Source: Clostridia bacterium
Lineage (GTDB): Bacteria > Bacillota > Clostridia > Oscillospirales > Acutalibacteraceae
Length of the DNA stretch: 44,082 bases
Reading direction: 5' to 3'
Assembly: GCA_017481085.1 (NCBI GenBank)
Contig: JAFUPS010000065.1
Coordinates: 1-44,082, forward strand
This document shows positions 8,590 to 27,207 of the stretch, piece by piece. Within the stretch, counting starts at the first letter, position 1. Each line of letters opens with the position of its first letter. Below the pieces are notes generated by a model, which saw only the letters and a list, made by a program, of their open reading frames with translations, made no database searches and had not been told where the DNA came from. A program made the position numbers and the translations under genes.

Positions 8590-8639
8590 AACCCTTTACA
8601 ATTAAGGTATATATGTACGCGTGTTATAAGGAGCAAACT

Positions 8640-10143: not shown

Positions 10144-11754
10144 ATGAAAAAGACAATGACGAAAGTTCTGGCGATGCTGATCGCCGCGGTGATGCTCATC
10201 GGCTGTATGGCCGGCTGCGATGGCAGCGGCGGCGGTGCGAAACTGACCGGCGAAGTGCTGATGATCACGGCTGCGCTCAACGGCTTGGGCGAAAGCTGGC
10301 TGCGCGACGCAGCCGAGGCCTACACCTATGAGACCGGTGTGGAAGTGCGTATCGAGTTTGACTCGCTCGTTTCGCAGAATATGACCACCATCTTCGAAAC
10401 CGAAGGTATGGAGACGGCTGACCTCTATTTTGCACAGTCGTACGAGTGGGCGCAGTGGTTTGACCGTGGCTACATCATGGATATTACCAGCATGATGAAC
10501 CAGAAGGACGAAAACGGCCAATCGCTCAACGATCGTATGGTCTCCACCAAAATGTACACGCTGGACAGCGGCGAGGAGAAGCAAAGCATTCTGCCGGTGA
10601 CCAACGCCCCGACCGGTATGGTGTATAATAAAGCGATGATGAAATATCTCTGCCAGGACGTGCTGGGCTGGGATGCATCGCACGAGTACCCGGTGAACAC
10701 CAAAGAGCTGCGCGAAGTGATCGCGGCGCTGGAAAAGGTGACCGCCGAGGGTACCAACAAGGAACTCTTTACTTATGAACAGTCCGGCCAGACCCTGCCG
10801 GTCAAGCCGTTCGTGTGGTCCGGCTCTACGGGTATGCTGGAAATGATGACCTATCCGTGGATGTGGCAGTATTTCGGCACCGAAGGTATGACCGCCTACT
10901 TCAGCCAGACCAAGAACATTGATATGCTCAACGATCAGGGCTTCTATCAGGTCTACCAGGAAATGGTCGATCTGCTTGGCCTGGTCGAGGACCCCAACAC
11001 CGGCGAATGGACCACCACCACTTCCATTCCGGGCTGTGCTTCGCTCAACCACGTTGGCTCACAGCAGCGTTTCCTGCGCGGCCAGGCGCTGATGGCACCG
11101 ACCGGCTCGTGGTTCTATAACGAAATGGAAACCGTTATCAACGAAAAAGAAGGTCTGGCAGAGAACGTTGCGTTTATGCCGACTCCGTGGATGGCGGATG
11201 AAAACGGCAACCCGATCACCAAGGAAGGTGTCGAGATGCCGAAGGATGAAAACGGTAACTACAAGCCGTATGTCAAGATCAATACGCAGGACTATTTCTG
11301 CATCCCGACCAAGGCGTATGCGCCGGAACTGGCTCAGGACTTCCTGCTGTTTATGTTCTCCTCGGATTATCTGCCCACTGTGGCGGAGACGTTGCAGTCG
11401 CCGGTGTGCTTCGAGTACGGCGATGTCGAGATCGAAAAGACCTCGTGGTTTGCAAGCGTCGACAAGGCGATGCAGATCGGTGTGCAGGCAACGAAATTTG
11501 CGCCCAACAAGCTGGCGCTGTACGGCCGCATCGGCTTCTACTACAACCCGGACGTTGCGCCGTTCTCCCGTCTGGTGCAGTCCAGCTTCGGCAGCAGCAA
11601 CATCCTCGTCGACTCGGCGACCGGTAAAGTGATCCAGTCTGCCGATCAGGCGACCGGTATTGCGGTTACCGAAAACGTGTACAAATATGTGAAAGGTAAC
11701 TTCGATCGCGGCTCCATCGCGTTCCAGGATGCTAAAAAAGAGTTGGGAGTGTAA
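10144..11754 (+). CDS. Large extracellular solute-binding lipoprotein of a carbohydrate ABC transporter (LplA-like)
   Basis: The lipobox is MLIGCMAGC. The 536-aa size and its position directly upstream of two sugar-type permease genes fit this call. Confidence 0.75.
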   Translation: MKKTMTKVLAMLIAAVMLIGCMAGCDGSGGGAKLTGEVLMITAALNGLGESWLRDAAEAYTYETGVEVRIEFDSLVSQNMTTIFETEGMETADLYFAQSYEWAQWFDRGYIMDITSMMNQKDENGQSLNDRMVSTKMYTLDSGEEKQSILPVTNAPTGMVYNKAMMKYLCQDVLGWDASHEYPVNTKELREVIAALEKVTAEGTNKELFTYEQSGQTLPVKPFVWSGSTGMLEMMTYPWMWQYFGTEGMTAYFSQTKNIDMLNDQGFYQVYQEMVDLLGLVEDPNTGEWTTTTSIPGCASLNHVGSQQRFLRGQALMAPTGSWFYNEMETVINEKEGLAENVAFMPTPWMADENGNPITKEGVEMPKDENGNYKPYVKINTQDYFCIPTKAYAPELAQDFLLFMFSSDYLPTVAETLQSPVCFEYGDVEIEKTSWFASVDKAMQIGVQATKFAPNKLALYGRIGFYYNPDVAPFSRLVQSSFGSSNILVDSATGKVIQSADQATGIAVTENVYKYVKGNFDRGSIAFQDAKKELGV

Positions 11755-11757
11755 TGT

Positions 11758-12687
11758 ATGAGCCGAACTCTTAACGGTATGGAAAGGATCAGGCGTCGGC
11801 GTGTCGCCTTCGCTCTGCTCCTGATGGCCTGGCCGGTATTTATGTTTGTATTCGGCCAGGTTCTCAACCTGAATATGTTCTACATGGCGTTCCATAACTA
11901 TGGACGTTACGGTACCGCCAACCCCATCTTCGTTGGCTTTGATAACTTCGTGGGCGTTTTCAGAATGTTCGACGAAACGATCATCGGCAACGAATGGGAA
12001 GCGGTAACCAACTCCCTGCAGGTCGCGGGCGTTACGCTGTTTATCAACGCCCCGATCTCCCTGCTGTTTGCGTACCTGCTGTTCTCCAAGGTCCCGGCTT
12101 ATAAGACGCTGCGTGCTTTGCTGTATCTGCCCTGCGTGACCTCTGCGGTCGTGCTGGTGCTTATCTTCCGCGGTGTCTTCGAATCCGGCCCGCTGGAGAT
12201 GGTGTATCAGCTGTTGGGCGTTGCGGATAAATATCCGGTCAACGGCTGGTTTGTGCAAGGCCGTGCCTGGCCGGTCATCCAGATCTTCAATATCTGGACC
12301 GGCTTCTCCACCAATATGTTGTTCTTCCTTTCGGCCATGAACCGCGTGTCGGACGACTTCGTGGAAGCCGCTAAGCTAGACGGTGCCACCGAGCCGCAGA
12401 TCTTCTTCAAGATCGTGTTGCCGCTCATCTCGCCGACGGTCACCACCATTATGACCATTTCGTTGGCGGCGGTGTTTGGCTGGGGCCAGCAATCCATGCT
12501 GTTTATGGGCGACTTCTCCGGTGCGGAGGGTACCTCGGCCATCGGTCTGACGATGCTGGGTATGGCCCAGAGCCGAAACTTCGGCGGTGCATCCGCCTAC
12601 GGTGTGTGCCTTACTCTGGTCGGCGCACCCATCACCCTGGCTATTCGTGCGTTGGGCAGAAAACTGTCCACCAACGAAGAGTATTAA
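11758..12687 (+). CDS. Carbohydrate ABC transporter permease (LplB/MalF-type)
   Basis: It has six hydrophobic segments and an EAA-like loop (DDFVEAAKLDGATEPQIFFKIVLP). Confidence 0.85.
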   Translation: MSRTLNGMERIRRRRVAFALLLMAWPVFMFVFGQVLNLNMFYMAFHNYGRYGTANPIFVGFDNFVGVFRMFDETIIGNEWEAVTNSLQVAGVTLFINAPISLLFAYLLFSKVPAYKTLRALLYLPCVTSAVVLVLIFRGVFESGPLEMVYQLLGVADKYPVNGWFVQGRAWPVIQIFNIWTGFSTNMLFFLSAMNRVSDDFVEAAKLDGATEPQIFFKIVLPLISPTVTTIMTISLAAVFGWGQQSMLFMGDFSGAEGTSAIGLTMLGMAQSRNFGGASAYGVCLTLVGAPITLAIRALGRKLSTNEEY

Positions 12688-12700
12688 GGGGGTGCGGATA

Positions 12701-13597
12701 ATGGCAAGAGTAAGAGAATACCGTAAAGATAAGGTCAAGACCCCCACTACCGTCGGCAGTGTGCTGTGGGCTGGCTTCAAATGGATCGCCTACGTGCTGA
12801 TGATCCTGTGCGCATTTTCCTTCGTGTTCGTGTTCGCATGGACGTTTATGAACTCCTTCAAAACGGCCATTGGCTATGCGGAGGACACCTTCTTTCTCCC
12901 CGAAGTATGGGATTTTGATAACTATGCGAAGGTGCTGCGCGAAATGCAGTATAAGTCCTACGGTCTGTTCGAGATGCTCGGCAACTCGGTGATCCTCATT
13001 GCGCTGGGCGTTATCAACGCGATGGTCTGGCCGCAGTTTGCCGGCTACGCCATGGCACGCTTTGAGTTCCCGGGCCGCAAGATCATCGAAGCCGCGGTCT
13101 ACGTGGCAATGATCATCCCGATCATCGGTACCACCAGTACCGTGATGCAGATCAAAATGGCCCTCGGTCTGTATGACACGTTCCTCGGCGAATTCCTGTT
13201 CGGCTCCGGCGCGCTGGGTATGGGCTCGATCATGTATACCACCTTGTACCGCGGCCTGCCGGCGGCCTACGCCGAAGCAGCGTATATCGACGGCGCAGGG
13301 GAGTGGAGAGTGTTTTTGAACATCTACTATCCGCAATCCGTTCCGCTGATGCTGATCTTCGTCATTCAGGGCGCTATCGGTACGTGGAACGACTACATGG
13401 GCCCGTATCAGATGCTCCCGACTCACCCGACATTGGCGCTCGGCTTGCACGAGATGCAGCAGCGCTTCGTCCACTTCGGCGGCGATTACCCGGTGATGTT
13501 CGCCGGCTTGATCCTGGCTATGGCTCCCGTTTTGATCGTGTATTCGATCTTTGCGGATAAGATCATGGGCAACACCGCTATGGGTGCGTTGAAGTAA
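12701..13597 (+). CDS. Carbohydrate ABC transporter permease (LplC/MalG-type)
   Basis: The ATG at 12701 follows an AAGGGGG RBS. The EAA loop is AYAEAAYIDGAGEWRVFLNIYYP. Confidence 0.85.
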   Translation: MARVREYRKDKVKTPTTVGSVLWAGFKWIAYVLMILCAFSFVFVFAWTFMNSFKTAIGYAEDTFFLPEVWDFDNYAKVLREMQYKSYGLFEMLGNSVILIALGVINAMVWPQFAGYAMARFEFPGRKIIEAAVYVAMIIPIIGTTSTVMQIKMALGLYDTFLGEFLFGSGALGMGSIMYTTLYRGLPAAYAEAAYIDGAGEWRVFLNIYYPQSVPLMLIFVIQGAIGTWNDYMGPYQMLPTHPTLALGLHEMQQRFVHFGGDYPVMFAGLILAMAPVLIVYSIFADKIMGNTAMGALK

Positions 13598-13708: not shown

Positions 13709-16700
13709 GTGCGTTTAACCAAGAAATTTGGAGCAGTCGTGCTCGCTTTGGCGCTGCTTATCAGCTGCCTGGGCGTATTCACGGTTTCTGCCGCTACCGA
13801 CACGGTGATGAATTTGGTCTCGTTCCGTGACAGTGCTACCGGCTATGCGTCGTACGATTATTCGGCGTCCTATACGGATGCATCGTGGCGTATGTTTTTT
13901 TACGGCGATGCTTCCCCGACGGATATTAACGCTGCTTTTGGCGATTACGTCGTCACGTGGGACAACGGCGGTGAGACCGGTCAGTCGGCCGTACAGTTGT
14001 ATCCGCAGAACGCCGATAACGGCATTATGTGGGCTGTTATCTGGGGCGTTCCGGCCGCAGATGCCCTGGTGGACGGTGCGACCGTAAAGATCGCTGCCGG
14101 CACCGGTACGACCGGCAGCGGAAACAGCATCACGCTGGCCCGTGACGTCGACATGAAGTGGCATGCCGATACCCAGAGATGGGAGTACATCGCTCCCGCA
14201 CCGAGCTATACCGGCAATGCGTTGGCGTACAGCTCATCTAACGCGGGCAGCGGTTTTTACGCTTCCAGCGCAGACTCTATTCCGTATAATACCGATTGGA
14301 ATTATCGTTACTTCCCCATTGGGACACAGGGCGAAATCACCCTTATTCGTAACGGTGTGGAGACCAAACTGCCGAATGCGTATTTCCAGAAGATTGGCGC
14401 CTCGTCGTATTATATTAACGTCGAAGCTGGTGGCACACCTGTGCAGGCAGGCGATACCATCCGCATATCCGGCATATTTGGTCTGGGCGATTGGACGAAG
14501 GCGTGGGTCATCGGCTGGTTCCCGGGCACTTATGTAGAAATCCCGGAAGCCGTCTTTGATTTCGACGGCTCCAACTGGAGTGCCGGCTACGTACTGAGCG
14601 ACGATGCCGTCGTGCTGACTCACTTGGACGTCATTGCGGCGCACCAGTCGGCAACCGCCTTTTACACGAGCCTCCCGGAAGGCACTACCGGCTTGACTAT
14701 CGATAATGATTGGTATACGCGTTTCTACCCGATGACCAACCAGGACGGCGGCTTTGTAAACGGCACGGCCTACGCCAATCGTTTTGCGTTGGATGGCGGT
14801 GGTGGCATGCCGATCCAGAGCTCGGCCGGTGCGGCTGGTCTGTACGTGAGTGGTTTTGGCACGGCGACTGAAGGCACGACCGTCACCATCATGGGTGATT
14901 TCTACGGTTATAACCGTAACACCGGTGTGATGACCGGTGAGCAGATAACGCTGTATGCGCCGGTCACCTTCACCTACAGCGGCGGTGTGTGGACGCGCAC
15001 TTCCGAGATTCCGGAGATCCCGGTCTCTTGGAACTACCACGACTTTACGATTTCCGGTGTCAGTCAGGTGATCGAGAACGCTGCGACGACTGGTTATCGC
15101 CATTTCTACCTGAATATCAACGGCGAAGTCCCGGGCGACTGGGATAAGTTCGAGCACCTGCAGCTCGCCGTCAACGATGGTGAAAAATTTGGCGTTCGCG
15201 TTGGCAACAACGGTTCGACCTCCGTTATCTGCTTTGACGTGTATAAGGATTACATGCCCGCGTCGATCGACGTTGGAACGACCCTTACGCTCTATGCCGG
15301 TGCGGCGACACCCGCCGCTGATGCTGTCAATGTCAATGCCGATGACGCCATTCGTCTGACGCAGGATTGCACGCTGGTGTGGGATGGCTCCGGATGGGTG
15401 CTGGAAGAGGATTACAATCCGATCAGCTATACCAATCTGACCATCACCGGTGCGATTGAACCATCTGGTTTAAATACCGACAGCGGACGTTGGGATTTCT
15501 ATCTGTCTGTTGACGGTACTATCCCGGGCGTGGCTGACAGCGGCTATAGCTTCGCACCTATCAAAGCGATCTATAAAGATGCCGTCGGCAATACGATTCT
15601 GGAAAAGAACTTTACCTTCACCCATGCCGCTCACGGTAACGGCACGTTCTTTGCTTACGTCGAATTCACCGAGCTGACAGCCGATGCTTTGCCGGCCGGC
15701 TCGCATGTCACCTTCTATGCCGGCAAGGCGGATCCGACCACCGGTTCCGAAGGTATCAATATTACAAATGATTTCTCGCTCGAGTGGAACGGCAGCGAGT
15801 GGGTGACACCGGATCTTACTGTGTATGAGGATGTTGCTCTGAGCGCCCCGGAAAACGGTTGGAACGCTGAGCATTCCTGGTGGGATATCTATCTCACGTC
15901 CGATATCATTCTGCCGGGTACTGCCTGGGAGACTGCCTATAAGGATATCGTTGTGGAATACGGCGACGGTGCAACCGCCAATGGTCTGGCTGTCAAGAAG
16001 GCCGGCGATAAGCGGTTGAACGTCTTCTTCACAAGCGATGCTCCGGCTGTCGGTACCAAGATCACCATCAAGGCCGGCAAGTCCAAAGCGTATAACAATT
16101 CCACCGGCGTGGTGGATACGACCGCCAACGGCATCAACATCGTGTCGGATTATGTGATGGTCTGGACCGGTACCGGATTGGTGCCGGCGGCAGATTATGT
16201 GGTGTATAATGACCTCACTCTGACCGGCACGGTCAATCCGACCGGCTGGAGCGGCTCGATTTGGAACTTCTATCTGAGCGTTGATGGTACCATTCCGGGC
16301 GTGGGTGACAGTGGTTATTACTTCACACCGGCTTACATCACTGTGGTGGATGGCAACGGCAATACGCTGCTTAACAAATTTGAGAGAAACTTGGCTTTTG
16401 CGGCACATCAAACGACGCTGTTCTTCAACATTGACGCCAGCTCGCTGCCGTATGCCAGCGTGACCGAGGGCACCGTTCTGACTATCCACAGCGGCAAGAT
16501 GGATCCGATCTCCTGGGAATCCATTGCCCGCAACGAAGACGGCTATCAGATCGGTATCAACGTGCAAAACGACCTTGTGCTTGTGTGGGACGGCGCGTCG
16601 TGGATCAACTACCTCGACCGCTCCGGCTACACCGTGTACGAGGGCTCGGTATCCACGAAGGGTGCTGAAGTCGATCCGTCCACGCCGCCGCACCTGTATC

Positions 16701-18601
16701 TGCAGGGTAGCGACACGCTGGATGCGGTCATGAAAGACGTAGCCACCGATTGGAATATTGCCTACGTGTATCCGATGCTCGGCAGCGCCAACGGCGTGTT
16801 CCTCAACGGCACCAAGATCAGCGTTTCCTTCCAGAAATACAGCGGTGGGGCTAACCGCTGGTATATGGGCGGCGTCACGCCTTCTGCAGAGGGCGATACG
16901 CTCGTCATCAAGGGCCAATTCTACAACGACACCTATCAGGTCATCGTTGACCTGGCTCCGCTCACCCTCGTGTGGAATGGTACTCAATGGGTGCAGCAGA
17001 TCATCGCAACGGTGGAGAAGGACGTCAACGGCGACGGCGAAGTGGACATCCGCGATGCTATTCTGCTGCAGATGCACCTGGCCGATACCACCGTGGTCAT
17101 CTCCAATATGTCCGATATCAACGAGTCTGGCTCGGTCACTTCGGATGACCAGCGTATGCTCCGGCGTTACCTGCTCGGCATCGTCGTCACCTACGTGAAC
17201 GACATCCCGGTCGGTACGCCGTACTACGCCGGTGGCGAGATGATCAAGACGGCCTACATTCCGCCGGCAATCGGCACGATCGATTGGGATACCGAAACCG
17301 TCAACTTCAAGAGCGATGATGAGATCGACCGCCTGATGGACGATTATGCAGCGGCCGGCTTCACGCACATCAACCCCGAGTCCTATGCGTATTTCTATGA
17401 TCAGGCAGCTGATTGGGGTCCGCAGCAATTGCTGTATCGCTATTTCGAAGAAGCGGAAGAGCGCGGTCTGAAGGTCATTGTGTCCAGCGCATATATGTTC
17501 AACCTGTTGAGGGCCGGATGGGATATCGATACCTATGACTCGTCCGATGCGACGCAGGTGAACTATACCAACTGGCGTGCGGTTATGGAGAGCCTTGTCA
17601 TCATTTTGAGTGAGCACCCGGCGTTCTGGGGCTTCATGATGGCTGACGAACCGGATAGCAGTCAGATTTCCAACTATGTGAAGGTCATTTCCTATCTGCA
17701 CGAGACCTATCCGTCGGTTGGCACCTACTGGGCGAACTACCCGAGCTATGCATCCTCGAGCGCAGTGGGTGGCAACTACACCAACTACGTCACGTCGCTT
17801 GGTGCCGGTACCGGTCAGTTTATGTACGACAGCTACTGCCTGGTTAATAAGGATACCTGGTACGGCTCCTCGGATAACTATATCGACGAGTACTGGTTCT
17901 CCAACCTGAACACGGTTGCCACGCTGGGCCGCGATAACAACTTCACCAGCGGTATCACCATGCAGTCGACGGCGTTGACGCCGACCGGCGGTGACGGTTT
18001 GTTTGCCAATACCTATCAGCGCCGTCAGATCCTCTCCGATGCCGATATCGGCTTCCAGGTGTACACCGCGCTGGCATACGGTTTCAAGGAGCTGAGCTAC
18101 TTCACGTATTCGGATCACCCGTCCGGTACGAGCGCCAGCGTTGTGCTGAATACCTCTATGGTTGGCACTGACCTGTCCACCAAGAACGCGGCGTACTACG
18201 CTGTCAAGAACACCCATGCCGAGATCAAAGATCTCGAGGCGGCGCTGGTCAACTACAACTGGCTGGGCACCATCGAGCTGAATCTGGAAGATTCCGACGA
18301 TAAGACCTCGACCTATACGGCGGCGAACAACGACCGCTTGGCTTCCGTCTCCAACGCCAGCGGTGCGTTGGTCATCGGTTGCATGAAGGACGTTGACGGC
18401 TACGACGGTTACATGGTTGCAAACGCTTCCGAGCCGTCCAAGTCCAGCACTTCTTCGGTCACTCTGACCTTTAACAACGCCACCAAGGCGCTTGTGTACG
18501 TCAACGGCGTGGCACGGGAAGTGACGCTGACGAACGGTGCTTACACCGTGTCGGTTGCCGACGGCGAAGGCGTGTTCATCATCCCGATCCTCGAAGGTTA
18601 A
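13709..18601 (+). CDS. 1630-aa secreted multimodular protein: signal peptide, 8 repeat modules of about 120 aa, an internal dockerin, and a C-terminal GH-like domain (paralog 2 of 3)
   Basis: The GTG start follows an AAAGGAGG RBS and the signal peptide ends VSAATD. Modules end in (W/Y)(D/N)G(S/T)xW. The dockerin lies at 17021-17178. The C-terminal domain has the motifs GFMMADEP, YDSYC, ITMQS and YTALAYGFKELSYFTYSDH. Confidence 0.7.
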   Translation: MRLTKKFGAVVLALALLISCLGVFTVSAATDTVMNLVSFRDSATGYASYDYSASYTDASWRMFFYGDASPTDINAAFGDYVVTWDNGGETGQSAVQLYPQNADNGIMWAVIWGVPAADALVDGATVKIAAGTGTTGSGNSITLARDVDMKWHADTQRWEYIAPAPSYTGNALAYSSSNAGSGFYASSADSIPYNTDWNYRYFPIGTQGEITLIRNGVETKLPNAYFQKIGASSYYINVEAGGTPVQAGDTIRISGIFGLGDWTKAWVIGWFPGTYVEIPEAVFDFDGSNWSAGYVLSDDAVVLTHLDVIAAHQSATAFYTSLPEGTTGLTIDNDWYTRFYPMTNQDGGFVNGTAYANRFALDGGGGMPIQSSAGAAGLYVSGFGTATEGTTVTIMGDFYGYNRNTGVMTGEQITLYAPVTFTYSGGVWTRTSEIPEIPVSWNYHDFTISGVSQVIENAATTGYRHFYLNINGEVPGDWDKFEHLQLAVNDGEKFGVRVGNNGSTSVICFDVYKDYMPASIDVGTTLTLYAGAATPAADAVNVNADDAIRLTQDCTLVWDGSGWVLEEDYNPISYTNLTITGAIEPSGLNTDSGRWDFYLSVDGTIPGVADSGYSFAPIKAIYKDAVGNTILEKNFTFTHAAHGNGTFFAYVEFTELTADALPAGSHVTFYAGKADPTTGSEGINITNDFSLEWNGSEWVTPDLTVYEDVALSAPENGWNAEHSWWDIYLTSDIILPGTAWETAYKDIVVEYGDGATANGLAVKKAGDKRLNVFFTSDAPAVGTKITIKAGKSKAYNNSTGVVDTTANGINIVSDYVMVWTGTGLVPAADYVVYNDLTLTGTVNPTGWSGSIWNFYLSVDGTIPGVGDSGYYFTPAYITVVDGNGNTLLNKFERNLAFAAHQTTLFFNIDASSLPYASVTEGTVLTIHSGKMDPISWESIARNEDGYQIGINVQNDLVLVWDGASWINYLDRSGYTVYEGSVSTKGAEVDPSTPPHLYLQGSDTLDAVMKDVATDWNIAYVYPMLGSANGVFLNGTKISVSFQKYSGGANRWYMGGVTPSAEGDTLVIKGQFYNDTYQVIVDLAPLTLVWNGTQWVQQIIATVEKDVNGDGEVDIRDAILLQMHLADTTVVISNMSDINESGSVTSDDQRMLRRYLLGIVVTYVNDIPVGTPYYAGGEMIKTAYIPPAIGTIDWDTETVNFKSDDEIDRLMDDYAAAGFTHINPESYAYFYDQAADWGPQQLLYRYFEEAEERGLKVIVSSAYMFNLLRAGWDIDTYDSSDATQVNYTNWRAVMESLVIILSEHPAFWGFMMADEPDSSQISNYVKVISYLHETYPSVGTYWANYPSYASSSAVGGNYTNYVTSLGAGTGQFMYDSYCLVNKDTWYGSSDNYIDEYWFSNLNTVATLGRDNNFTSGITMQSTALTPTGGDGLFANTYQRRQILSDADIGFQVYTALAYGFKELSYFTYSDHPSGTSASVVLNTSMVGTDLSTKNAAYYAVKNTHAEIKDLEAALVNYNWLGTIELNLEDSDDKTSTYTAANNDRLASVSNASGALVIGCMKDVDGYDGYMVANASEPSKSSTSSVTLTFNNATKALVYVNGVAREVTLTNGAYTVSVADGEGVFIIPILEG
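17021..17178 (+). other. Type-I-like dockerin module (two Ca-binding repeats) inside the 1630-aa protein
   Basis: DVNGDGEVDIRDAILLQMHL ... DINESGSVTSDDQRMLRRYLLG is the classic duplicated F-hand pattern DxNxDGxxxxxDxxxLxxxL. Confidence 0.7.
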
Positions 18602-18697
18602 TTCTTTGTGAAAAACGGCGAAAGCCCTCTCGCAATCGAGAGGGCTATCCCGGATTTTAGCAATCTTTTCCAAACCTCGCATGAAGGAGGCAAATTT

Positions 18698-21600
18698 ATG
18701 AAACTTAGCAAACGCATTCTTACAATTGCGCTGTCAATTATTATGCTGTTGAGCGCTTTGGCGGTGCCGGTCGTTGCTGCCAACGACTTGACGGTCGCCG
18801 GTGTACATAACTTCAGCACGGTCGCCGGGGACTGGCGGTTCTGGCTGAACATGGAAGGCACCTGGCCGGTCAGCGATAGCTTTATAGCATTTACCGCTCC
18901 TGCGGTGAGTATCAACGACACTACGCTCGATTCTGCTGTTATTGAGACCTACAAAGACGGCGATAGGTTGTTGCTGTGTCTGTGGGGCCCGTTGACCGGT
19001 GGCGTCACGCCGAAGGCCGGCGATACTGTCGTTGTCAAAGCAGGGCAGATCTCTGCCGCCTCCGGCACTGCCAATATTGCCGAGGATGCCGTGTTGGTTT
19101 ACGACGGTTCGGCATGGAATCTGCAAGTTCAGGTCACTTATTATGATGCCAAATTGACCTTTACGGAGGCACAGACAAGCTCCGCGGCGAATTATCTCTA
19201 TATGAGTGCATATTGCGATATGCCTTGGGATGCTGGTTATAGCGACTGGCACGTTAAGATGAAGGCTGCCGATGCTGATAGCGGCGTCTTCCTCAACGGC
19301 ACCAAGGCTGTCGATGCGCAGATTGTCCCGTACGGAGAGGTATGGACCGAGACGGGTGCCGTCACCGATTGGTGGTACTATATTGAACTGTTCGGTACAG
19401 CTGTTGCCGGCGACGAACTTACCATCAAGGGCAAGTTTGCCTATGGTAATATCGGTATCAACGTGGCGGAGATCACGATGACCTATGACGGCAGCGCATG
19501 GACCGTCAAAGAAGCGGAAGAAGAGGATACTGCTGTCGAGATCCCGTATCTCGATGTGATCGACCAGTCGCACCTGCAGAATGCGACCTCGTTCTATACG
19601 GCAGTGCCGGATGCGTCCATCGCACTGACCGACAGCAAGGCCGACTGGAGCAACCGCTTCCTGCCGGTAGGCGAGGAGGACGGTGCGTTCTTCAACGGCA
19701 CTCGCTTTGACGTGGATGGCGGTGGCGGCCTGGCGTATCAATCGTCTGCCGGTGTGGCCGGTTTCTATATCAATGGCTTTGGAACGGCTGTTGCCGGTGA
19801 CAAGGTTACGATGCAGGGCCGCTTTGCTTCGGCTAAGACCGGCGAAGTGTTCAAGCTGATCGCTCCGGTGGAATTCACCTATGACGGCAGCAAATGGACG
19901 CGCACCTCCGAGAAGCCGGATTACGTGCCGGACGAAAAGGTTTATGATAACAACTACACCGGTACGCTGACCACCGTCGGCGCAGAGACCACCGGTGCGG
20001 CCCACCAGCTCTACCTCAAGGGCGATGCCGGTCTAGATCTGTACAAAGTCAACGTGACCGACTGGTCGGTTCGTCTGACGGTTGCTGTCGGCGATGATAA
20101 CGGCGTGTTCCTCAACGGCAACAAAGTGGCTGGCGGCTCACTGTTTAAGTACGGCGATGCTGACAACTACTGGTTTGCCGAAGGCTTTACCGCTACGACC
20201 GGCGATGTGATCACCATCAAGGGCGATTTTGTTAACGATGCACAGTCGGCGAAGGTGACTATTACCGAATGCCAGTTCCAGTGGGATGGTTCTAAATGGA
20301 TCGATTGCGTTCCGTCTGTTGAGCCGGAGTGGACGTATCACGATTTCACCATTACCGGTGTCAACGTGGTGCAGAACAATACCGCCAGCAACGGCTACCG
20401 TTATTTCTATCTGAATATCAACGGCGAAGTTCCGGGCAACTGGGATAAGTTCGAAGGTCTGCAGTTTGCTGTCAACGGCGGCGAGAAGTTCGACGTTCGC
20501 GTTGGCAATAACGGCAGCACAGGCGTGATCTGCTTTGACGTACACACTAGCCATATGCCGGCAGATATTCCGGTCGGTACAACCATTACGTTGTATGCCG
20601 GTGAAGCGCCTGCCGCTTCGGATGCAGCCAATGTTGCGGCTACCGACGTGATTCGCCTGGTCGCGGATTATACACTGGAGTGGAACGGCACCGAATGGGC
20701 TGCTCCGACCGATGAGCCGACCTACGTCGATGTGATGCTGTCCAATCCGTTACACGGCTGGAATAATGAGCAGTCCTGGTGGGATATTTATCTCAATACC
20801 GATGCCGCTCTGCCGGGTACGAATTGGGAGACCGTCTACAAAGATATCGTCGTCGAGCTCGACGGTACTGCTGTCAGCGGTGCGACTGTTCAGAAGGCCA
20901 ATAACGACCGCGAACTCAATGTTTTCTTCACTGACGATACGGCGCCGATTGCCGGTACCAAAGTGACGGTCAAGGCCGGTAAATCGCTGGCTTATGTGAA
21001 AGCGACCGGCGAATTGAACGCCGATCTGGACGGCATTAACATCACGGCCGATCATTCCTATATCTGGGATGGCGGCAAGCTGGTGCTCGAGAGCGAATAC
21101 CAGCCGCCGGTGGAATTCACGTATTACGATTTCACCGTCAGCGGTCTGAATCAGTACATTGATAATCTGGCTAATGACTACCGTCATTTCTACCTCGCCA
21201 TTAACGGCGCTGTCCCGGGTAACTGGGATAAGTTCGAAGGTCTGCAGGTTGCGGTCAACGGCGGCGAGAAGTTCGACGTTCGCGTTGGCAATAACGGCAG
21301 CACAGGCGTGATCTGCTTTGACGTACACACTAGCTACATGCCGGTGGATATCGCCGTTGGCACGACGTTGACGATCTACGCCGGCGAGGCGCATCCGGCT
21401 GCTGATGCAGCGAACGTGGCTGCCACCGACGCTATCCGTCTGGGTGCGGATTACACGCTGGAGTGGAATGGCAGTGCCTGGGTGCTTCCGGGTACGGAAA
21501 TCGAGTATACCGAATACACCGGTACGCTGACCACCGTTGGTGCGGAGACCGGTAACACCAACAACAACCACATCTACTTTGCCGGCAGCGCTACCCTGGA

Positions 21601-24600
21601 TGCCTACAAGGTCAACACGACCAACTGGGATGTCCGCCTGGTTCCGGTGGAGGACGGTGTGAGCGGTGTGTACCTCAACGGCATCAAGATGCCGGGCGCT
21701 ACCGTCTTCAAGTACAACGATGCGGCTAACAGATGGTTTGCGGAAGGCTTTATTGCCTCTGAGGCCGGTGACAAGGTAACCATTAAAGGCTCCTTTGTCA
21801 ACGATATGCAGGCGGCCAAGGTCATCATCGAGGAATGCTCCTTCATTTGGAACGGCTCCAAGTGGGAGGATGAGCAGACCGATATCGACTACAGCCAGTA
21901 CACCGCATACAACGGCACGCTGACCACCTTCGGTGCGGAAGCGACCGGTAAGAACAACCAGATCTATTTCAAGGGCGATGCCGGTCTGGCTGAGGTCTTC
22001 AACGATCTGATCGCGGCTGATAAAGAGGCCGGTAACGAAACCAACGGTTGGAACACGTCCATGCTGTATGCGCTGAAGGGCGAAGAAAACGGTTTCTTCC
22101 TCAACGGCGCCAAGGTCGATGCGCTGGAATTCCAGAAGTACAGCGATATCAACAACGGTTGGTTTGCAACCGGCTTTATCGCAGAGGTGGGTGACGTGCT
22201 CACCATCAAGGGCTCTTTTGCAAACGATGCGCAGCAGGTGCTGATCACATTCACCGAACGCAGCTACATCTGGGACGGCAACAAGTGGGCCGACGACGTG
22301 CCGGATACCACCGTGTATACCGATATCACGCTGACCGGTATGACTCTGCCGAACTATAGCGATGACGAATACGATCACTGGATCCTGCACCTCACCTACA
22401 ACGGCACCCTGCCGTCTGTGCACGGAGAGCGTTTTGAGAATCCGATGACCTACATCGATGGCGTTCGCGTATCGGATGGCAATATGTCTTTCTATGACGA
22501 TAGCGCCAGCGGCTTGCTGCTCGACCTGTGGGTGCAAGGCCTGAAGGACGAGGGTCCGGCTGTCGGCCAGAAGATCACCGTCAAAGCCGGCAAGCTCAAG
22601 AGCAAGTCTAACCCGGACGTTGGTATCAACATTACCGAAGATATCACGTTTGAGTACAACGGTACGAAGTGGATCATCGAGGGCTGGGTGGATACCACTG
22701 TCTACGAGGAGATCACCCTGAAGGACGATCCGATCTCCCCGAGCGGTTACCGCGATACCAGCAACCGCTGGGATTTCTACATCCCGTTTGACGGCACGAT
22801 CTCCGTTGAGCCGGATAACAACGGCCGCTTCGATTTCATCAAGGTGTCGGTCGTGGACGGCAGCGGCAAGAAGCTGCTGGATAAGGTGGACGTTATCGCT
22901 CACCACGCGGCTCACGGCAACACGACCGTGTTCTTCATTCTGGAAAACACGCTGCTCTCCAAGGATGCTGTCACGGCGGGCACGGTTCTGACGATCCATG
23001 CCGGCAAGGCGGCTCCGAGCGGCAATTCGATCAACGGTATCAACGTGACCGCTGATTACCAGATCAAGTGGAACGGTGATGCGTGGATCAACCCGAACTA
23101 CGTGGAGATCCCGTCGAAGGAAACGGTTACGTTGCAGTTGGACAAAAAGACGGATTACGGCGGCAATGAGAACGGTATCTACTTGCTCACCACCGACCAC
23201 TTCCCGGTCGATAAAGAGTGGAAGACGCGCATCTCGGCGGTCAGCTACGATGCTGATAGTGGCGTTTTCTTCAACGGTGAGAAGGTATACAACTCCAGCC
23301 TCTGCCGTTTTGACGACGGCAAGGTGTACGTGACGCTGGCGGATGCCGGCATTCTGGCGCAGGATAAGGACAAGGTCACGATCAAGGGTCTGTTCGCATT
23401 GGACGGCTACGGTGTTACCTACAAGGAACTTACCTTGTACTATAACGGTGTCGAGTGGGGTACCACCTATACGAAGGCCCCGGAAAAGACCTGGACCAAG
23501 TTCCAGATCGAAGGCATCAACACGGTGACCAGCTACAATTCGGTTTCCAAGCAGTGGAACATCTATCTTAACCTGAGCAATATGATCCCGGGCGATATTG
23601 ACGATATGAGCTTCAACGGTATGAAGGTCGTCGTCAACGGTCAGGAATACGATCTGTTTACGGCACACTCCTACCAGCATACGCTGTATTGCTACATCCC
23701 GGGCGACATCCTGCCGAACAAGGGTGTGGATGGCACGGCGGTCACCATCAAGGCCGGCAAGGCGATGGGTGAGGACCGTCACAGCGGTATTGAGTTGACG
23801 AAGGATTTCACCTTCTACTATTACAAGGGTGCGCTGAACGCTAAGAAACCGACCACCAATACCACCTGGCACGACGTAACGGTCACCCGTATGAATCAGA
23901 CGAAGGCGTTTGATCCGGCGACCGGTGAATGGCGTTTCCACCTGATCATCCGCAGTTCTCTCGAAGAGGTGGAGAACAATACGGTGTTTGGCGAACTTCC
24001 GTTGGTAGTCAACGGTGTCAAGCACGAGGTCACGGCGATGCTTGACAACTCCTATCTGTTTATCCGTATTCCGGAAAGCGTGATGGGCGACGTGCAGAAG
24101 GCAACGATCAAGATCCCGGCCGGTGCTACGGCGATCGGTGATGCCGGTTATCACGGCCTCAAATTCACCAACGAGTGGACCGGCTACGTGTTCAACGGTG
24201 TCCTGGCTGAAACGGATTACACCGAGGCAACCCGCCAGAAGGCGAACATCCTCGGCGTGCAGGCGATCACTCCGGGTGTGGACCGCGATCACGTGTATCT
24301 GCGCCTGAACAAGGAAGTATATGGTACCGCGTGGTACGAAGGCTACACGGGCTTCACCTATTACTACAATGGTAAGCTGATCACCACCGACGCATTCAAG
24401 AGCGAGAGCTCCAACAACAAGTTTATGTATTTCCCGATCGTTCACAAAGACGTCGGCGGCACCGCCAAGGAAGGCGACAAGATCGTCATTAAACCGGGCG
24501 CTGTCGGCAAGGGCGGCGGTTACGAGCTGGAGATCACAAACGAGTTTACGCTGGTCTTCAGCGGCGGCTTGTGGACGCAGTATGTGGATTCCGATGTCCA

Positions 24601-25633
24601 GGCGCCGACCAATGATAAGACGCTGTGGGAGGAGTATCGCTTTGGCGAGGGCTTTATCCCGACGATCAAGGAAGGCAATTCGGTACTGTGGTCGAACGAA
24701 GATTCCTACCACAGCATCGAATCCATCGACAAGCACGGCGATTACACCTTCACCTTCGAGGCGACCAAGAAGTACGACGACGAGGTCGTGCCGCCGTTCT
24801 ACGTGATCATGCGCGGTAACCAGATCAGCGAAGAAGATCCGATGACCGCCGAAATGCTGTACGGTTACGTCATTCAGTTTGCGGCTCTCGAAATCGACGA
24901 TCCGGCAAATCCGGGCGAGAAGATCTGGTCGCAGTACATCAACCTGTGGAAAAACGGTATCAACGGTTCGCTGATCGACCAGTATCGTATCACCTATATC
25001 CACGATCAAACCGATCACCCGTTCTTCGAGTATGAGGAGACCTACAAGTATGAGTTCTCCGTTTTCAACATCTCGGAAACGATGGCATGCATCACTGTGA
25101 AGATCAACGATCGTCTGGCACTTCGTTACTACGATGTCGCCAGCAGCGATCCGTTTGATCCGGCTATCAACGACGGCACCTTCGGTGTTTACGCCAGCTG
25201 CCCGGGTTATATCACCAGCGAGCCAATCGAGCTGGAACAGATGATCGTGGCGAAGGATACCTGCTACGTTGGCGATGGCGTCCGTGTGGCGGCAACCTAT
25301 CCGTCTATTCTGGATGGCGCCGTATTCACGGTTGACAGTGAATTCGCCACCGTGGTCGACGGTGTGTTCCGTGCAGACAAAGCGGGCGTATACACCATCT
25401 CCTGCACCTACAACGGTAAGGATCTCGGTTCCAAGACCATCACGGTCGAGGATCCGCCGAGGCGTACCGATACGGAGGCAGAGGAAGGCGAATTCCCGTG
25501 GCTGATCGTCGGCATTGCCGGCGGTGCGGTCGTCATCGCGGTGGCCGCTCTGTTCGTTATCTTGGCTGTTGCCAAGAAGCGCAAGGCTGCTGCTGCGGTT
25601 GCAGAAGCTGAGCAACCGACCGCGACGGAGTAA
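18698..25633 (+). CDS. 2311-aa cell-surface protein: signal peptide, about 15 repeat modules related to those of the upstream gene, a jelly-roll-like domain, an Ig-like domain and a C-terminal TM anchor
   Basis: The ATG at 18698 follows a GAAGGAGG RBS and the signal peptide is MKLSKRILTIALSIIMLLSALAVPVVAAND. The C-terminus is PWLIVGIAGGAVVIAVAALFVILAVAKKRK plus a 17-aa tail. There is no LPXTG and no catalytic motif that I recognise. Confidence 0.7.
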   Translation: MKLSKRILTIALSIIMLLSALAVPVVAANDLTVAGVHNFSTVAGDWRFWLNMEGTWPVSDSFIAFTAPAVSINDTTLDSAVIETYKDGDRLLLCLWGPLTGGVTPKAGDTVVVKAGQISAASGTANIAEDAVLVYDGSAWNLQVQVTYYDAKLTFTEAQTSSAANYLYMSAYCDMPWDAGYSDWHVKMKAADADSGVFLNGTKAVDAQIVPYGEVWTETGAVTDWWYYIELFGTAVAGDELTIKGKFAYGNIGINVAEITMTYDGSAWTVKEAEEEDTAVEIPYLDVIDQSHLQNATSFYTAVPDASIALTDSKADWSNRFLPVGEEDGAFFNGTRFDVDGGGGLAYQSSAGVAGFYINGFGTAVAGDKVTMQGRFASAKTGEVFKLIAPVEFTYDGSKWTRTSEKPDYVPDEKVYDNNYTGTLTTVGAETTGAAHQLYLKGDAGLDLYKVNVTDWSVRLTVAVGDDNGVFLNGNKVAGGSLFKYGDADNYWFAEGFTATTGDVITIKGDFVNDAQSAKVTITECQFQWDGSKWIDCVPSVEPEWTYHDFTITGVNVVQNNTASNGYRYFYLNINGEVPGNWDKFEGLQFAVNGGEKFDVRVGNNGSTGVICFDVHTSHMPADIPVGTTITLYAGEAPAASDAANVAATDVIRLVADYTLEWNGTEWAAPTDEPTYVDVMLSNPLHGWNNEQSWWDIYLNTDAALPGTNWETVYKDIVVELDGTAVSGATVQKANNDRELNVFFTDDTAPIAGTKVTVKAGKSLAYVKATGELNADLDGINITADHSYIWDGGKLVLESEYQPPVEFTYYDFTVSGLNQYIDNLANDYRHFYLAINGAVPGNWDKFEGLQVAVNGGEKFDVRVGNNGSTGVICFDVHTSYMPVDIAVGTTLTIYAGEAHPAADAANVAATDAIRLGADYTLEWNGSAWVLPGTEIEYTEYTGTLTTVGAETGNTNNNHIYFAGSATLDAYKVNTTNWDVRLVPVEDGVSGVYLNGIKMPGATVFKYNDAANRWFAEGFIASEAGDKVTIKGSFVNDMQAAKVIIEECSFIWNGSKWEDEQTDIDYSQYTAYNGTLTTFGAEATGKNNQIYFKGDAGLAEVFNDLIAADKEAGNETNGWNTSMLYALKGEENGFFLNGAKVDALEFQKYSDINNGWFATGFIAEVGDVLTIKGSFANDAQQVLITFTERSYIWDGNKWADDVPDTTVYTDITLTGMTLPNYSDDEYDHWILHLTYNGTLPSVHGERFENPMTYIDGVRVSDGNMSFYDDSASGLLLDLWVQGLKDEGPAVGQKITVKAGKLKSKSNPDVGINITEDITFEYNGTKWIIEGWVDTTVYEEITLKDDPISPSGYRDTSNRWDFYIPFDGTISVEPDNNGRFDFIKVSVVDGSGKKLLDKVDVIAHHAAHGNTTVFFILENTLLSKDAVTAGTVLTIHAGKAAPSGNSINGINVTADYQIKWNGDAWINPNYVEIPSKETVTLQLDKKTDYGGNENGIYLLTTDHFPVDKEWKTRISAVSYDADSGVFFNGEKVYNSSLCRFDDGKVYVTLADAGILAQDKDKVTIKGLFALDGYGVTYKELTLYYNGVEWGTTYTKAPEKTWTKFQIEGINTVTSYNSVSKQWNIYLNLSNMIPGDIDDMSFNGMKVVVNGQEYDLFTAHSYQHTLYCYIPGDILPNKGVDGTAVTIKAGKAMGEDRHSGIELTKDFTFYYYKGALNAKKPTTNTTWHDVTVTRMNQTKAFDPATGEWRFHLIIRSSLEEVENNTVFGELPLVVNGVKHEVTAMLDNSYLFIRIPESVMGDVQKATIKIPAGATAIGDAGYHGLKFTNEWTGYVFNGVLAETDYTEATRQKANILGVQAITPGVDRDHVYLRLNKEVYGTAWYEGYTGFTYYYNGKLITTDAFKSESSNNKFMYFPIVHKDVGGTAKEGDKIVIKPGAVGKGGGYELEITNEFTLVFSGGLWTQYVDSDVQAPTNDKTLWEEYRFGEGFIPTIKEGNSVLWSNEDSYHSIESIDKHGDYTFTFEATKKYDDEVVPPFYVIMRGNQISEEDPMTAEMLYGYVIQFAALEIDDPANPGEKIWSQYINLWKNGINGSLIDQYRITYIHDQTDHPFFEYEETYKYEFSVFNISETMACITVKINDRLALRYYDVASSDPFDPAINDGTFGVYASCPGYITSEPIELEQMIVAKDTCYVGDGVRVAATYPSILDGAVFTVDSEFATVVDGVFRADKAGVYTISCTYNGKDLGSKTITVEDPPRRTDTEAEEGEFPWLIVGIAGGAVVIAVAALFVILAVAKKRKAAAAVAEAEQPTATE
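20471..20551 (+). repeat. 81-nt segment identical to 21254-21334 (copy A), inside otherwise diverged paralogous modules
   Basis: GTCAACGGCGGCGAGAAGTTCGACGTTCGCGTTGGCAATAACGGCAGCACAGGCGTGATCTGCTTTGACGTACACACTAGC is present at both positions. Confidence 0.9.
21254..21334 (+). repeat. 81-nt segment identical to 20471-20551 (copy B)
   Basis: The string is the same as copy A. The flanking roughly 45 nt upstream are near-identical, and identity decays further out. Confidence 0.9.
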
Positions 25634-25704
25634 TTGTAAAACAGCATAACCGGTGGGGCAGAGAGATCTGCTCCCACCGGTCATGCTGCTATCGGAGAAC
25701 CTGT

Positions 25705-27207
25705 ATGAAAAAATTAACAAAACCTTTCTATCCGGACGATCGCCGGATAGAAGAAACGGCCTATATGGGGCCTCGCCGTGCCGGCAAACGCTTTTGGGCG
25801 GGTGAGTACGGTAAAAACCCGCGTGATCCAGAGGGCGGTTATCCGTCTTTTGTCACCGATGAGGTGTTTGAAGATTACAAAAATGCCGGCTTGACATTCC
25901 TGATGCCGGAAGGCGATGCATACTTCGAACAGAAGTTTACGGAAACTGGATTGGCCTTTGAACCGGATTTTGAAAAGAGCCCGCTGTACGCCTTTATGGA
26001 AATGGCAGAAAAGCATGGACTGGACGTATATCCGGCGTGTGAGGCTATTTTCGGCAACATGACGCATACGGACGGCCCGTTTGGGGATGAAGAAAAATGC
26101 ATCGTCCGTCATTTCGTTGAAACGGTGCAGAAGTATTGCCCAAAGAGCTTCAAGGGTATCATGCTGACAGACGAACCCGGTATTGCCTCCATCGGCCGCG
26201 TAAAGAAGATCGTCGAGTATCTGAATTCCGATGAGATCCGTGCCATCAAGCCGGATCTGGACGTTTTCTCGTCTATGCTGCCGAACTACGCAACGCTGCC
26301 GAGCTATCAACTGGGATATCAGTATCCGGATCGCACCAAGCAGTTTGTCGTATTTGATGAGGAACGCAAGGGCCTCTACGCAAACTTTATTGATGCCTGT
26401 GCCGACGCGGTGGGCGAGTTCAGCTTTGACTTTTATCCGTTGGGTGAAAAGGGCCGTCTGTCGCCCGGGTTTTATCAAAACCTGGAAATGGCTGCCGAAC
26501 ATGGACGCGACGGGAATTTTCCGATCTCGGTCACGTTGCAGAGCTTTATGATGTTGTATAAGTACAACCATAAGACCGGCCGCGGTATCATCATCTATCG
26601 ATCACCGTCTTACGAGGACGTGCGTTGGCAGGTATATTCGTCGCTGGCATTTGGTGTGCAGCGTCTGGGTTGGTTTACCTTCTGGCAGCATTACAGCGAG
26701 AGTGAGCACGAGATGTTCCCGAACGCGATGGTTATCTACGATGAGTGCGAAAAGAGCGGTTACCGCAAAACCGATATCTATCACGCGGTGGCGAAGGTCA
26801 ATCGCGAGATCCAGGCTATCGACCACGTTTTTCTCCGCTTTCAGTGGAAAGGTTGCCGTAAGATCGCTACCAGCCGTGACCGCAACATTCGCCTGTTGGA
26901 AGGCGGATACGCCGGCGGTTGCCTGCGGACGCTGACCGGCACGCGGGATACGCTGCTTGGATGCTTCGAAAATCCGGAGGACGGCGCCGAGGGCTATTGG
27001 CTTGTGAATGCACATAATCCATATTGGCTCCTGCAAAACGACGTTAGCGTGACGTTTGCCGGTGCCACACATGTGCTGTGCTATCGCAACGGCGAGGAGC
27101 AGGTGCTGCCGCTTGAGCAGGTTACCGAAAACGGCGAGACCTGCGGCAAACTGTCGATGCGCTTGAGCTGCGGCGAAGGCGTGTTTGTCATCCCGTATAC
27201 CGAATAA
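25705..27207 (+). CDS. Cytoplasmic (no signal peptide) GH-like protein (paralog 3 of 3)
   Basis: The start is MKKLTKPFYPDDRR, with no hydrophobic leader. The motifs are GLTFLMPE, GIMLTDEP, FDFYP, VTLQS, YSSLAFGVQRLGWFTFWQH and C-terminal GVFVIPY. Confidence 0.55.
   Translation: MKKLTKPFYPDDRRIEETAYMGPRRAGKRFWAGEYGKNPRDPEGGYPSFVTDEVFEDYKNAGLTFLMPEGDAYFEQKFTETGLAFEPDFEKSPLYAFMEMAEKHGLDVYPACEAIFGNMTHTDGPFGDEEKCIVRHFVETVQKYCPKSFKGIMLTDEPGIASIGRVKKIVEYLNSDEIRAIKPDLDVFSSMLPNYATLPSYQLGYQYPDRTKQFVVFDEERKGLYANFIDACADAVGEFSFDFYPLGEKGRLSPGFYQNLEMAAEHGRDGNFPISVTLQSFMMLYKYNHKTGRGIIIYRSPSYEDVRWQVYSSLAFGVQRLGWFTFWQHYSESEHEMFPNAMVIYDECEKSGYRKTDIYHAVAKVNREIQAIDHVFLRFQWKGCRKIATSRDRNIRLLEGGYAGGCLRTLTGTRDTLLGCFENPEDGAEGYWLVNAHNPYWLLQNDVSVTFAGATHVLCYRNGEEQVLPLEQVTENGETCGKLSMRLSCGEGVFVIPYTE

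Follow-up and report, generated by a model that had tools for sequence, protein, structure and literature searches.

An unnamed family of tandem, predicted all-beta modules in two adjacent giant secreted proteins of a gut Clostridia locus

Within a 44,082-nucleotide stretch of DNA from a Clostridia bacterium (contig JAFUPS010000065.1 of assembly GCA_017481085.1; hereafter, the window), we studied two adjacent genes, A and B, which lie on the + strand and both encode giant secreted proteins carrying long arrays of a repeated module. Profile mapping placed exactly 23 copies of this module in the two proteins, 8 in A (nt 13793-16990) and 15 in B (nt 18776-24574), which bears out a preliminary description of the same DNA, made from the letters alone, that had counted about 23. 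The copies divide into two homologous classes, match no family in the resources that we searched, and are predicted to fold as all-beta sandwiches. As to what the arrays do, we lean, by a modest degree, towards a role as stalks or spacers on the cell surface, possibly with weak contact to substrate.

Twenty-three modules in two classes

Gene A (13709..18601, + strand) opens with a GTG start codon and encodes 1630 amino acids (aa), comprising a signal peptide (MRLTKKFGAVVLALALLISCLGVFTVSA; 13709..13792, + strand, read from the translation), the 8 modules, an internal type I dockerin and a C-terminal domain that we call Acat. Gene B (18698..25633, + strand) encodes 2311 aa, namely a signal peptide, the 15 modules, a region of ~310 aa that is conserved and membrane-proximal in proteins of the B type (Bct; 24575..25504, + strand, delimited by profile and sequence comparison) and a C-terminal transmembrane helix (WLIVGIAGGAVVIAVAALFVILAV; 25499..25570, + strand, read from the translation), followed by KKRK. 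The ATG at 18698 (MKLSKRIL...) is the start of B according to the gene caller as well as the signal peptide, and an independent gene call for the same contig in two ENA assemblies places it there too; the position given in the list of open reading frames, 18608, is too early. For gene A, two independent ENA assemblies give one and the same protein. The interval that the preliminary description had assigned to the modules includes a non-module part, 16991-18775, which covers the dockerin and catalytic-type domain of A, the gap between the genes and the signal peptide of B. Two long antisense open reading frames, 15470-18682 (- strand, 1070 aa) and 20750-25720 (- strand, 1656 aa), were rejected as genes: they are codon-aligned mirror frames, which stay open because A and B contain just 3 and 4 TTA, CTA or TCA codons, respectively, and are thus an artefact of codon usage.

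To delimit the modules, A and B were cut at matches to a regular expression describing the closing strand (spacing 126-141 residues), which gave 8 and 15 segments. Module length ranged from 114 to 141 aa, and was typically 126-138, somewhat above the 110-130 aa first proposed. An all-against-all BLAST of the 23 segments separated them into two clear groups: class I, consisting of A4-A7, B1, B5-B7, B10, B11 and B13, together with the divergent members A1, B14 and B15, and class II, consisting of A2, A3, A8, B2-B4, B8, B9 and B12. The order of classes is I II II I I I I II in A and I II II II I I I II II I I II I I I in B. Hence, of the two alternating classes that the preliminary description had reported, the classes were recovered in the pairwise BLAST matrix and the alternation was not, as the classes form blocks. 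The profiles of the two classes are themselves homologous, as hhalign aligned them over 90 columns with a probability of 95.5% (E 1.5e-8); common to both are the closing strand, a mid-module (V/F)xxNG turn and a G(D/T)x(V/I)T(I/V)K(A)G strand. The closing strand, aromatic-x-(W/Y)-(D/N)-G-x-x-W, had been described as ending each module; it is intact in 19 of the 23, and degenerate in A1, B13 and B14 and partly in B12 and B15. Every example string quoted in that description was found in A or B.

The homology of the modules was evident when the two proteins were used to search one another. Hidden Markov models (HMMs) built solely from A modules, of class I or class II, recovered 13 of the 15 modules of B (B1-B13) at 25-123 bits, the maximum in 200 shuffles of B being 4.9 bits, and HMMs built solely from B modules recovered all 8 modules of A at 13.7-113 bits, with a shuffle maximum of 5.2 bits. 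B14 and B15 scored weakly with the A-derived profiles (1.6 and 5.8 bits); these two are tied to B13 by BLAST (29-43 bits) and have positional orthologues in every relative of the B type (about 20 proteins). Overall, the modules are 20-40% identical to one another, the linkers between them measure only about 6-12 residues, their tryptophan content is high (2.9%), and the DNA identity between copies is 60-83%. Module order is partly kept between A and B, as had been noticed earlier: A2 corresponds to B2, A3 to B3 (48% identity), A4 to B5 and B7 (66%), A6 to B6 (56%) and A8 to B8. In addition, A4, B5 and B7 are mutually 66-80% identical, a likeness that suggests exchange between genes A and B.

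All modules are read from the + strand. In A, the array opens with the divergent class I module A1 (13793..14197), which was detected by the B-only HMM at 13.7 bits versus a shuffle maximum of 2.3 and is 74% identical to its orthologue P0009.1, and continues with class II modules A2 (14198..14578; 18.9 bits with the B-only HMM) and A3 (14579..14992), the latter of a DGGGG subtype, resembling B3 and assigned by BLAST and profiles. Next comes the class I run of A4 (14993..15397; W.YHDFT subtype, likened to B5 and B7, with 70% DNA identity to B5 over 300 nt), A5 (15398..15802; assigned by profiles and modelled with AlphaFold), A6 (15803..16180; likened to B6) and A7 (16181..16603), and the array closes with class II module A8 in the pre-dockerin position (16604..16990); A6, A7 and A8 were assigned by BLAST and profiles.

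In B, the A-only HMMs recognised every module up to B13, and BLAST supported the assignment of B1-B3 and B5-B11. B1 (18776..19117) is of class I and is followed by three modules of class II, B2 (19118..19501), B3 (19502..19897; DGGGG subtype) and B4 (19898..20299; modelled with AlphaFold). Class I modules B5 (20300..20698; W.YHDFT subtype), B6 (20699..21082) and B7 (21083..21481; 83% DNA identity with B5 over 300 nt) precede class II modules B8 (21482..21865) and B9 (21866..22288), and these precede B10 (22289..22672) and B11 (22673..23086), again of class I. The last four modules form a conserved II-I-I-I base, made up of class II module B12 (23087..23458) and class I modules B13 (23459..23842), B14 (23843..24214) and B15 (24215..24574), the last two divergent; all four are supported by positional orthologues, and B14 and B15 additionally by BLAST.

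Searches against known families left the modules without a name. When the 23 single modules were scanned against Pfam-A with hmmscan at E up to 10, no consistent match emerged, with no family found in more than one module and none at E <0.03; no family, Big_1-9, fn3, Flg_new, CBM_x, Cadherin-like and CBM_X2 included, reached its gathering threshold in any module. In scans of the whole proteins against Pfam-A, A yielded Dockerin_1 only, and B yielded HCBP_related, just over the gathering score with no stretch passing, and, in its C-terminal region, a Big_3 match that stayed below threshold. NCBIfam returned 0 families for A and, for B, just 'flexitail' (E 0.069, 14 bits versus a cut-off of 40), and module profiles compared with all PDB chain sequences gave nothing better than E 0.05. 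Likewise, no module was matched by the Pfam Cohesin profile (PF00963, E up to 10), by the Pfam CBM models (carbohydrate-binding modules) or by PDB sequences of solved CBMs. In the source annotations, the B-type relative MBP3937020.1 is called 'hypothetical protein' in NCBI. Judged from Pfam, NCBIfam, PDB and these annotations, the modules are a previously unmodelled, unnamed domain family. The preliminary description had likewise recognised no named family in them and had proposed such searches as a check; at the level of sequence profiles, they produced no confident match to a characterised Pfam or CBM family.

Relatives and their domain architectures

An exhaustive HMMER hmmsearch of 1.84 billion representative proteins with the class I profile retrieved 127 proteins, 80 of them at E 1e-10 or better. 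Of the 127, 101 carry full-length modules scoring 25 bits or more, 402 in total with 1-13 per protein, and nearly all true carriers are long multi-module proteins. The other 26 were not counted as members, being partial, half-module, high-bias matches to repeat giants of the Big_9, cadherin and Calx-beta-like kinds. A dockerin occurs in 57 of the 127 proteins matched. The module family is limited to a narrow group of cohesin-dockerin-using, spore-forming gut Clostridia.

The A-type architecture (modules, dockerin, and an Acat domain of ~470 aa) was found in 43 representatives, 39 with the dockerin and 4 without, and in these proteins the array usually closes with a class II module ahead of the dockerin. 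The B-type architecture (modules, Bct, transmembrane helix) was found in 20 representatives, whose arrays always end in II-I-I-I. The modules of this base are positional orthologues of B12-B15, whereas the distal array differs in number and order from one protein to another. Bct was detected in all 20 and is 41-60% identical among nine diverse representatives compared; in profile searches its first ~210 aa had no match, save a marginal one to 3keto-disac_hyd in a single member, and its last ~80 aa were weakly Big_3-like, giving a marginal adhesin/Big_3-like hint only.

In a third architecture, the modules and a dockerin precede CE2_N and a GDSL esterase, Y_phosphatase3, Metallophos or GDPD, and some relatives are also fused to CBM_4_9 or BACON. 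The module-bearing lineage displays extracellular phosphoesterases on cohesin-dockerin complexes. Seven relatives (P0057, P0059, P0060, P0064, P0067, P0094 and P0024) carry modules and a dockerin before phosphoesterase or CE2/GDSL domains, and the relatives with Y_phosphatase3 also carry FN3 or a purple-acid-phosphatase N-terminal domain.

Changes within an array were seen in P0009, an orthologue of A that is 64% identical to it. Here, A1, A3, A7 and A8 are conserved at 71-86% identity and Acat at 81%, and the positions of A5 and A6 (15398-16180) are taken by unrelated modules (16-23% identity). Turnover in the middle of the A array is thus cassette-like.

Predicted fold and possible role

One module of each class was modelled with AlphaFold2, using the internal repeats as the alignment. 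The class I model (A5; pLDDT 93.4, pTM 0.86) and the class II model (B4; pLDDT 86.2, pTM 0.80) are both all-beta with about 10 strands. A Foldseek comparison of the models with 350,542 PDB chains gave no match at E 1e-3 or better. The nearest neighbours were generic immunoglobulin (Ig)-like/E-set sandwiches at TM-scores of 0.35-0.45, a resemblance rather than a demonstrated membership, and included IrmA, a domain of MtrC, P19/FetP, NFAT RHD-C, MHC class II Ig domains and the Ig domains of L,D-transpeptidases. The best query-normalised TM-scores were 0.41-0.42 (IrmA 5ek5, the MtrC domain and NFAT RHD-C), and target-normalised values reached 0.45-0.50, with E no better than 3.5e-3. Among viral models, Foldseek found no meaningful neighbour. 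According to these models, the sequence family is new but seems to belong to a familiar class of fold, that of an ordinary-looking all-beta sandwich. The preliminary description had suggested a new carbohydrate-binding or adhesin fold; the predicted sandwiches and their Ig-like neighbours lend no support to a new fold, and the adhesin or stalk half of the suggestion is the better supported one.

Conservation was assessed over 282 class I modules. The conserved positions are mostly glycine, proline, the N-G turn and hydrophobic or aromatic core positions, and the same is true of the positional orthologues of B12-B15; in neither set was a conserved polar or aromatic cluster evident. One aspartate is conserved in 74% of class I modules. 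A candidate isopeptide K/N(D)/D triad is present in just 46% of them, without co-variation.

Taken together, the conservation of glycine, proline, N-G-turn and hydrophobic positions, the high and variable copy number, the turnover in mid-array and the occurrence of the same modules on unrelated enzymes lead us to regard a stalk or spacer, possibly with weak substrate contact, as somewhat the likelier role, with the mechanics of such a stalk inferred. Joined head to tail, the modules would form long beads-on-a-string stalks on the cell surface. B would be exported and rooted by its C-terminal membrane helix; Bct and the II-I-I-I base would be membrane-proximal, and the roughly 11 modules of the variable distal array would reach through the wall and past it. 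In this way the arrays would provide reach and set spacing, and they would probably also make some contact, of low affinity, with whatever polymer or particle is being broken down. By contrast with this proposed mechanism, the homology of the modules, their two subfamilies, the predicted fold class, the architectures, the conserved operon, the orthology of the base and the cassette turnover in the distal array are direct results of the comparisons.

Several observations weigh against a stalk. Tryptophan and tyrosine are among the conserved residues (the W of W.FYL, for instance, in 79%), so that a conserved aromatic platform is possible, and the tryptophan content is as high as in many CBMs. 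Moreover, identities of only 20-40% between modules, combined with position-specific orthologues, form a pattern seen more often in domains with specialised functions than in spacers that can stand in for one another, and in the orthologue that is 64% identical to A the conservation of several modules equals that of the catalytic domain. Lastly, the cohesin protein of the operon (described below) has no visible cell anchor with which to hold A on the cell.

Some of these same features would be expected if the modules represented one or two new CBM families, the arrays then acting as multivalent glycan binders that tether the cell (through B) and the enzyme (through A) to the polysaccharide attacked by Acat, much like the multi-CBM surface proteins of gut Firmicutes or surface glycan-binding proteins of the SusE/F type. 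We consider this a distinctly less probable role, yet one with several points in its favour: the modules are encoded in a sugar-utilisation operon together with three GH42-like paralogues (glycoside hydrolase family 42) and an ABC importer, B has no catalytic domain, making binding a natural job for it, some relatives carry the modules together with a CE2 esterase, CBM_4_9 or BACON, and, besides the tryptophan content, the two diverged classes with their position-specific orthologues, and the strong conservation of certain modules, suggest specialisation. However, the modules have no sequence or fold match to CBMs of solved structure, their conserved positions resemble core and turn residues, 15 copies per protein is far above the usual number of CBMs, the identical module type stands ahead of phosphatases and phosphodiesterases, and the middle modules are freely swapped between orthologues. 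The conserved core and turn residues and the fusion to unrelated enzymes are fitted by a structural stalk at least as well as by a CBM. That both classes are founders of one or two new CBM families specialised for the glycan cut by Acat strikes us as rather doubtful; were it true, the locus would be a complete new Gram-positive glycan-capture system, in which a 15-module binder rooted in the membrane and an 8-module enzyme docked on cohesin are combined with an importer and with the lipoprotein and cytoplasmic paralogues of Acat.

Two further explanations fared worse. The size of ~130 aa, the tandem arrays, the membrane anchor and the fact that, within this lineage, the modules strictly co-occur with proteins bearing dockerins would suit highly divergent cohesin-like receptors. 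B would in that case serve as a scaffoldin anchored in the membrane, and A as an adaptor scaffoldin that bears an enzyme and recruits dockerin proteins. Class II modules indeed gave very weak matches to CipA and cohesin-region PDB entries (E 0.57-0.85), and a cohesin-like module appeared among their Foldseek neighbours at ranks 8, 25, 26 and 47. Still, the Pfam profile that misses all modules does match the cohesin of the operon, at 1.1e-11, B4 aligned with 2jh2 and 2w1n at a TM-score of only 0.23-0.30 (probability 0.15-0.35) though the PDB holds many cohesins, and no cohesin was among the 50 matches listed for the class I model, and so we hold cohesin-like receptors to be very improbable. As for an artefact, be it low-complexity sequence, a chance motif or mis-assembled repeat DNA, the contig is metagenome-derived and the weak tail of 26 of the 127 proteins is probably spurious or very distant. 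This explanation is nevertheless refuted, with hardly any residual chance of being correct, by the scores of up to 123 bits across proteins versus about 5 in shuffles, by the 101 other representative proteins with full-length modules and by the confident structure models; mis-assembly in particular is ruled out, because the DNA copies are just 60-83% identical, too diverged to be mis-assembled, and gene A is the same on two assemblies.

The modules can be compared with known parts of extracellular proteins. Tandem Ig-like or beta-sandwich repeats, such as those of the Big_x, G5-E, CshA and Cna-B types, form the stalks of Gram-positive surface adhesins. As in these, the present modules are secreted, all-beta and within the general range of ~100-140 aa, stand head to tail in long arrays with short linkers, are rooted C-terminally in the envelope, vary in copy number, are conserved at core and turn positions, and have Ig-like Foldseek neighbours. 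They differ from these repeats in that they match no Ig-like family of Pfam, have a greater size (~130 aa, about 10 strands), have diverged much further from one another, are position-specific with a II-I-I-I base, end in a transmembrane helix instead of LPXTG, and occur in a cohesin-dockerin and glycan context. X modules, accessory parts of cellulosomal enzymes and of others with a dockerin, have no assigned function; the present modules resemble them in being non-catalytic, beta-rich and placed beside dockerins and carbohydrate-active domains in anaerobic Clostridia; they differ in matching neither CBM_X2 nor any other Pfam-modelled module, in forming arrays of up to 15 rather than one or two, and in lying N-terminal to an internal dockerin. 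With the beta-sandwich CBMs of CAZy they share size, the all-beta prediction, tryptophan content and fusion to glycan-active enzymes, but not a match to any solved CBM or an evident conserved surface site, and CBMs are set apart also by the phosphatase fusions seen here. Finally, scaffoldin cohesins (PF00963) are similar in forming tandem modules of ~130-140 aa in an anchored protein of dockerin-using bacteria, and dissimilar in profile and in structural alignment. The modules are therefore a new domain family of a familiar kind, the extracellular beta-sandwich repeats of Gram-positive surface and cellulosome-type proteins, and no concept is overturned, since long beta-sandwich arrays on Gram-positive surfaces are already familiar.

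The surrounding locus and the Acat domain

The dockerin of A (17018..17176, + strand; aa 1104-1156) was identified by Pfam PF00404 at E 1.5e-8 (35.1 bits versus a cut-off of 22.9) and displays the duplicated calcium-binding motif D.N.DG..D, DVNGDGEVDIRD...DINESGSVTSDD. It is not C-terminal, as it lies between the module array and Acat, and the same order holds in 39 representative relatives. At the head of the operon is a gene for a secreted cohesin protein (7285..8373, + strand; Pfam Cohesin E 1.1e-11), the presumed receptor of this dockerin. It holds a single cohesin and has homologues in the same place in two related loci (L001 and L002); its C-terminal region of ~190 aa has no Pfam match, and no transmembrane helix, LPXTG or SLH anchor was seen in it.

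Between the cohesin gene and gene A lie a first Acat paralogue with a lipoprotein-type signal (8637..10130, + strand; placed by Acat comparison and synteny) and the genes for an ABC solute-binding protein and two permeases (10144..13597, + strand; Pfam and synteny). Acat paralogue 3, which lacks a signal peptide and should be cytoplasmic, follows gene B (25705..27207, + strand; again by Acat comparison and synteny), and an AraC-family regulator is also among the genes around A and B. With the ABC sugar importer, the Acat paralogues and this regulator, A and B would make up a Gram-positive glycan-utilisation locus. A would be exported, and its internal dockerin would presumably bind the cohesin protein, a docking that would leave Acat and the 8-module arm on opposite sides of the attachment point; a path of degradation from outside to inside would then be completed by the lipoprotein paralogue of Acat, the importer and the cytoplasmic paralogue. 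Both the cohesin-dockerin docking of A and the carbohydrate nature of the substrate are presumed here.

The Acat domain of A (17189..18598, + strand) is distantly GH42-like and contains an invariant D-E (aa 1313-1314). A narrow profile of 8 Acat sequences had no match in PDB or Pfam, Pfam Glyco_hydro_42 included, and NCBIfam gave no hit to the domain either. A broad profile of 20 sequences, distant members included, matched 5xb7, which we take to be a GH42 beta-galactosidase, at E 3.5e-5 over two collinear stretches, as well as weaker GH42 and GH5 entries of the PDB. In this alignment, the invariant D-E of Acat falls on the N-E acid/base position of GH42, and a motif of the SYDxYP type is present. 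Acat thus resembles GH42, and clan GH-A, in its collinear profile match, its D-E on the acid/base site and this motif, but departs from it in having Asp in place of the clan Asn, a length of about 470 aa with a C-terminal beta-rich part of its own, and, in the Acat alignment, no invariant second Glu to serve as nucleophile. On these profile comparisons, Acat is probably a distant clan GH-A-like glycosidase and a putative new glycoside-hydrolase-like family.

We used the Acat alignment to collect related loci. The order cohesin, Acat1, solute-binding protein, permease, permease, A-type, B-type, Acat3 occurs twice in a metagenome-assembled genome (MAG) from goat colon, 'Clostridia bacterium RGIG2058', and three further gut MAGs have it in rearranged form. 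In MAGs of Christensenellaceae and Borkfalkia, more distantly related Acat genes adjoin ABC sugar transporters, single copies occur in Planctomycetes and other phyla, and the family is also present in Anaerolineae, Fimbriimonadaceae and Saccharimonadaceae. In an Abditibacteriota MAG from yak rumen (L013, L018 and L019), up to five tandem Acat genes lie on one short contig without modules. The carriers of the locus whose source is named come from goat colon, and yak rumen is among the sources of the other Acat-carrying MAGs. The Acat family is therefore far more widespread than the modules, and its 80 closest database relatives are all without a name.

There are consequently two targets for new family definitions, the module (402 full copies in 101 representatives) and the GH42-like Acat (hundreds of unnamed proteins), and defining both would improve the annotation of gut and rumen metagenomes. 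Acat, the second unnamed family, may be the more useful discovery of the two. The locus as a whole provides a handle on how uncultured gut Clostridia reach and process polymer.

Directly downstream of the locus, at 27293-30478, are genes for a VTC domain protein, DUF4956 and a Cthe_2159-family protein. Further on lie an OmpR-type two-component system (30518-32427, - strand) and, nearby, SpoIVA (33307-34785, - strand), the presence of which indicates that the contig derives from an endospore-forming Firmicute.

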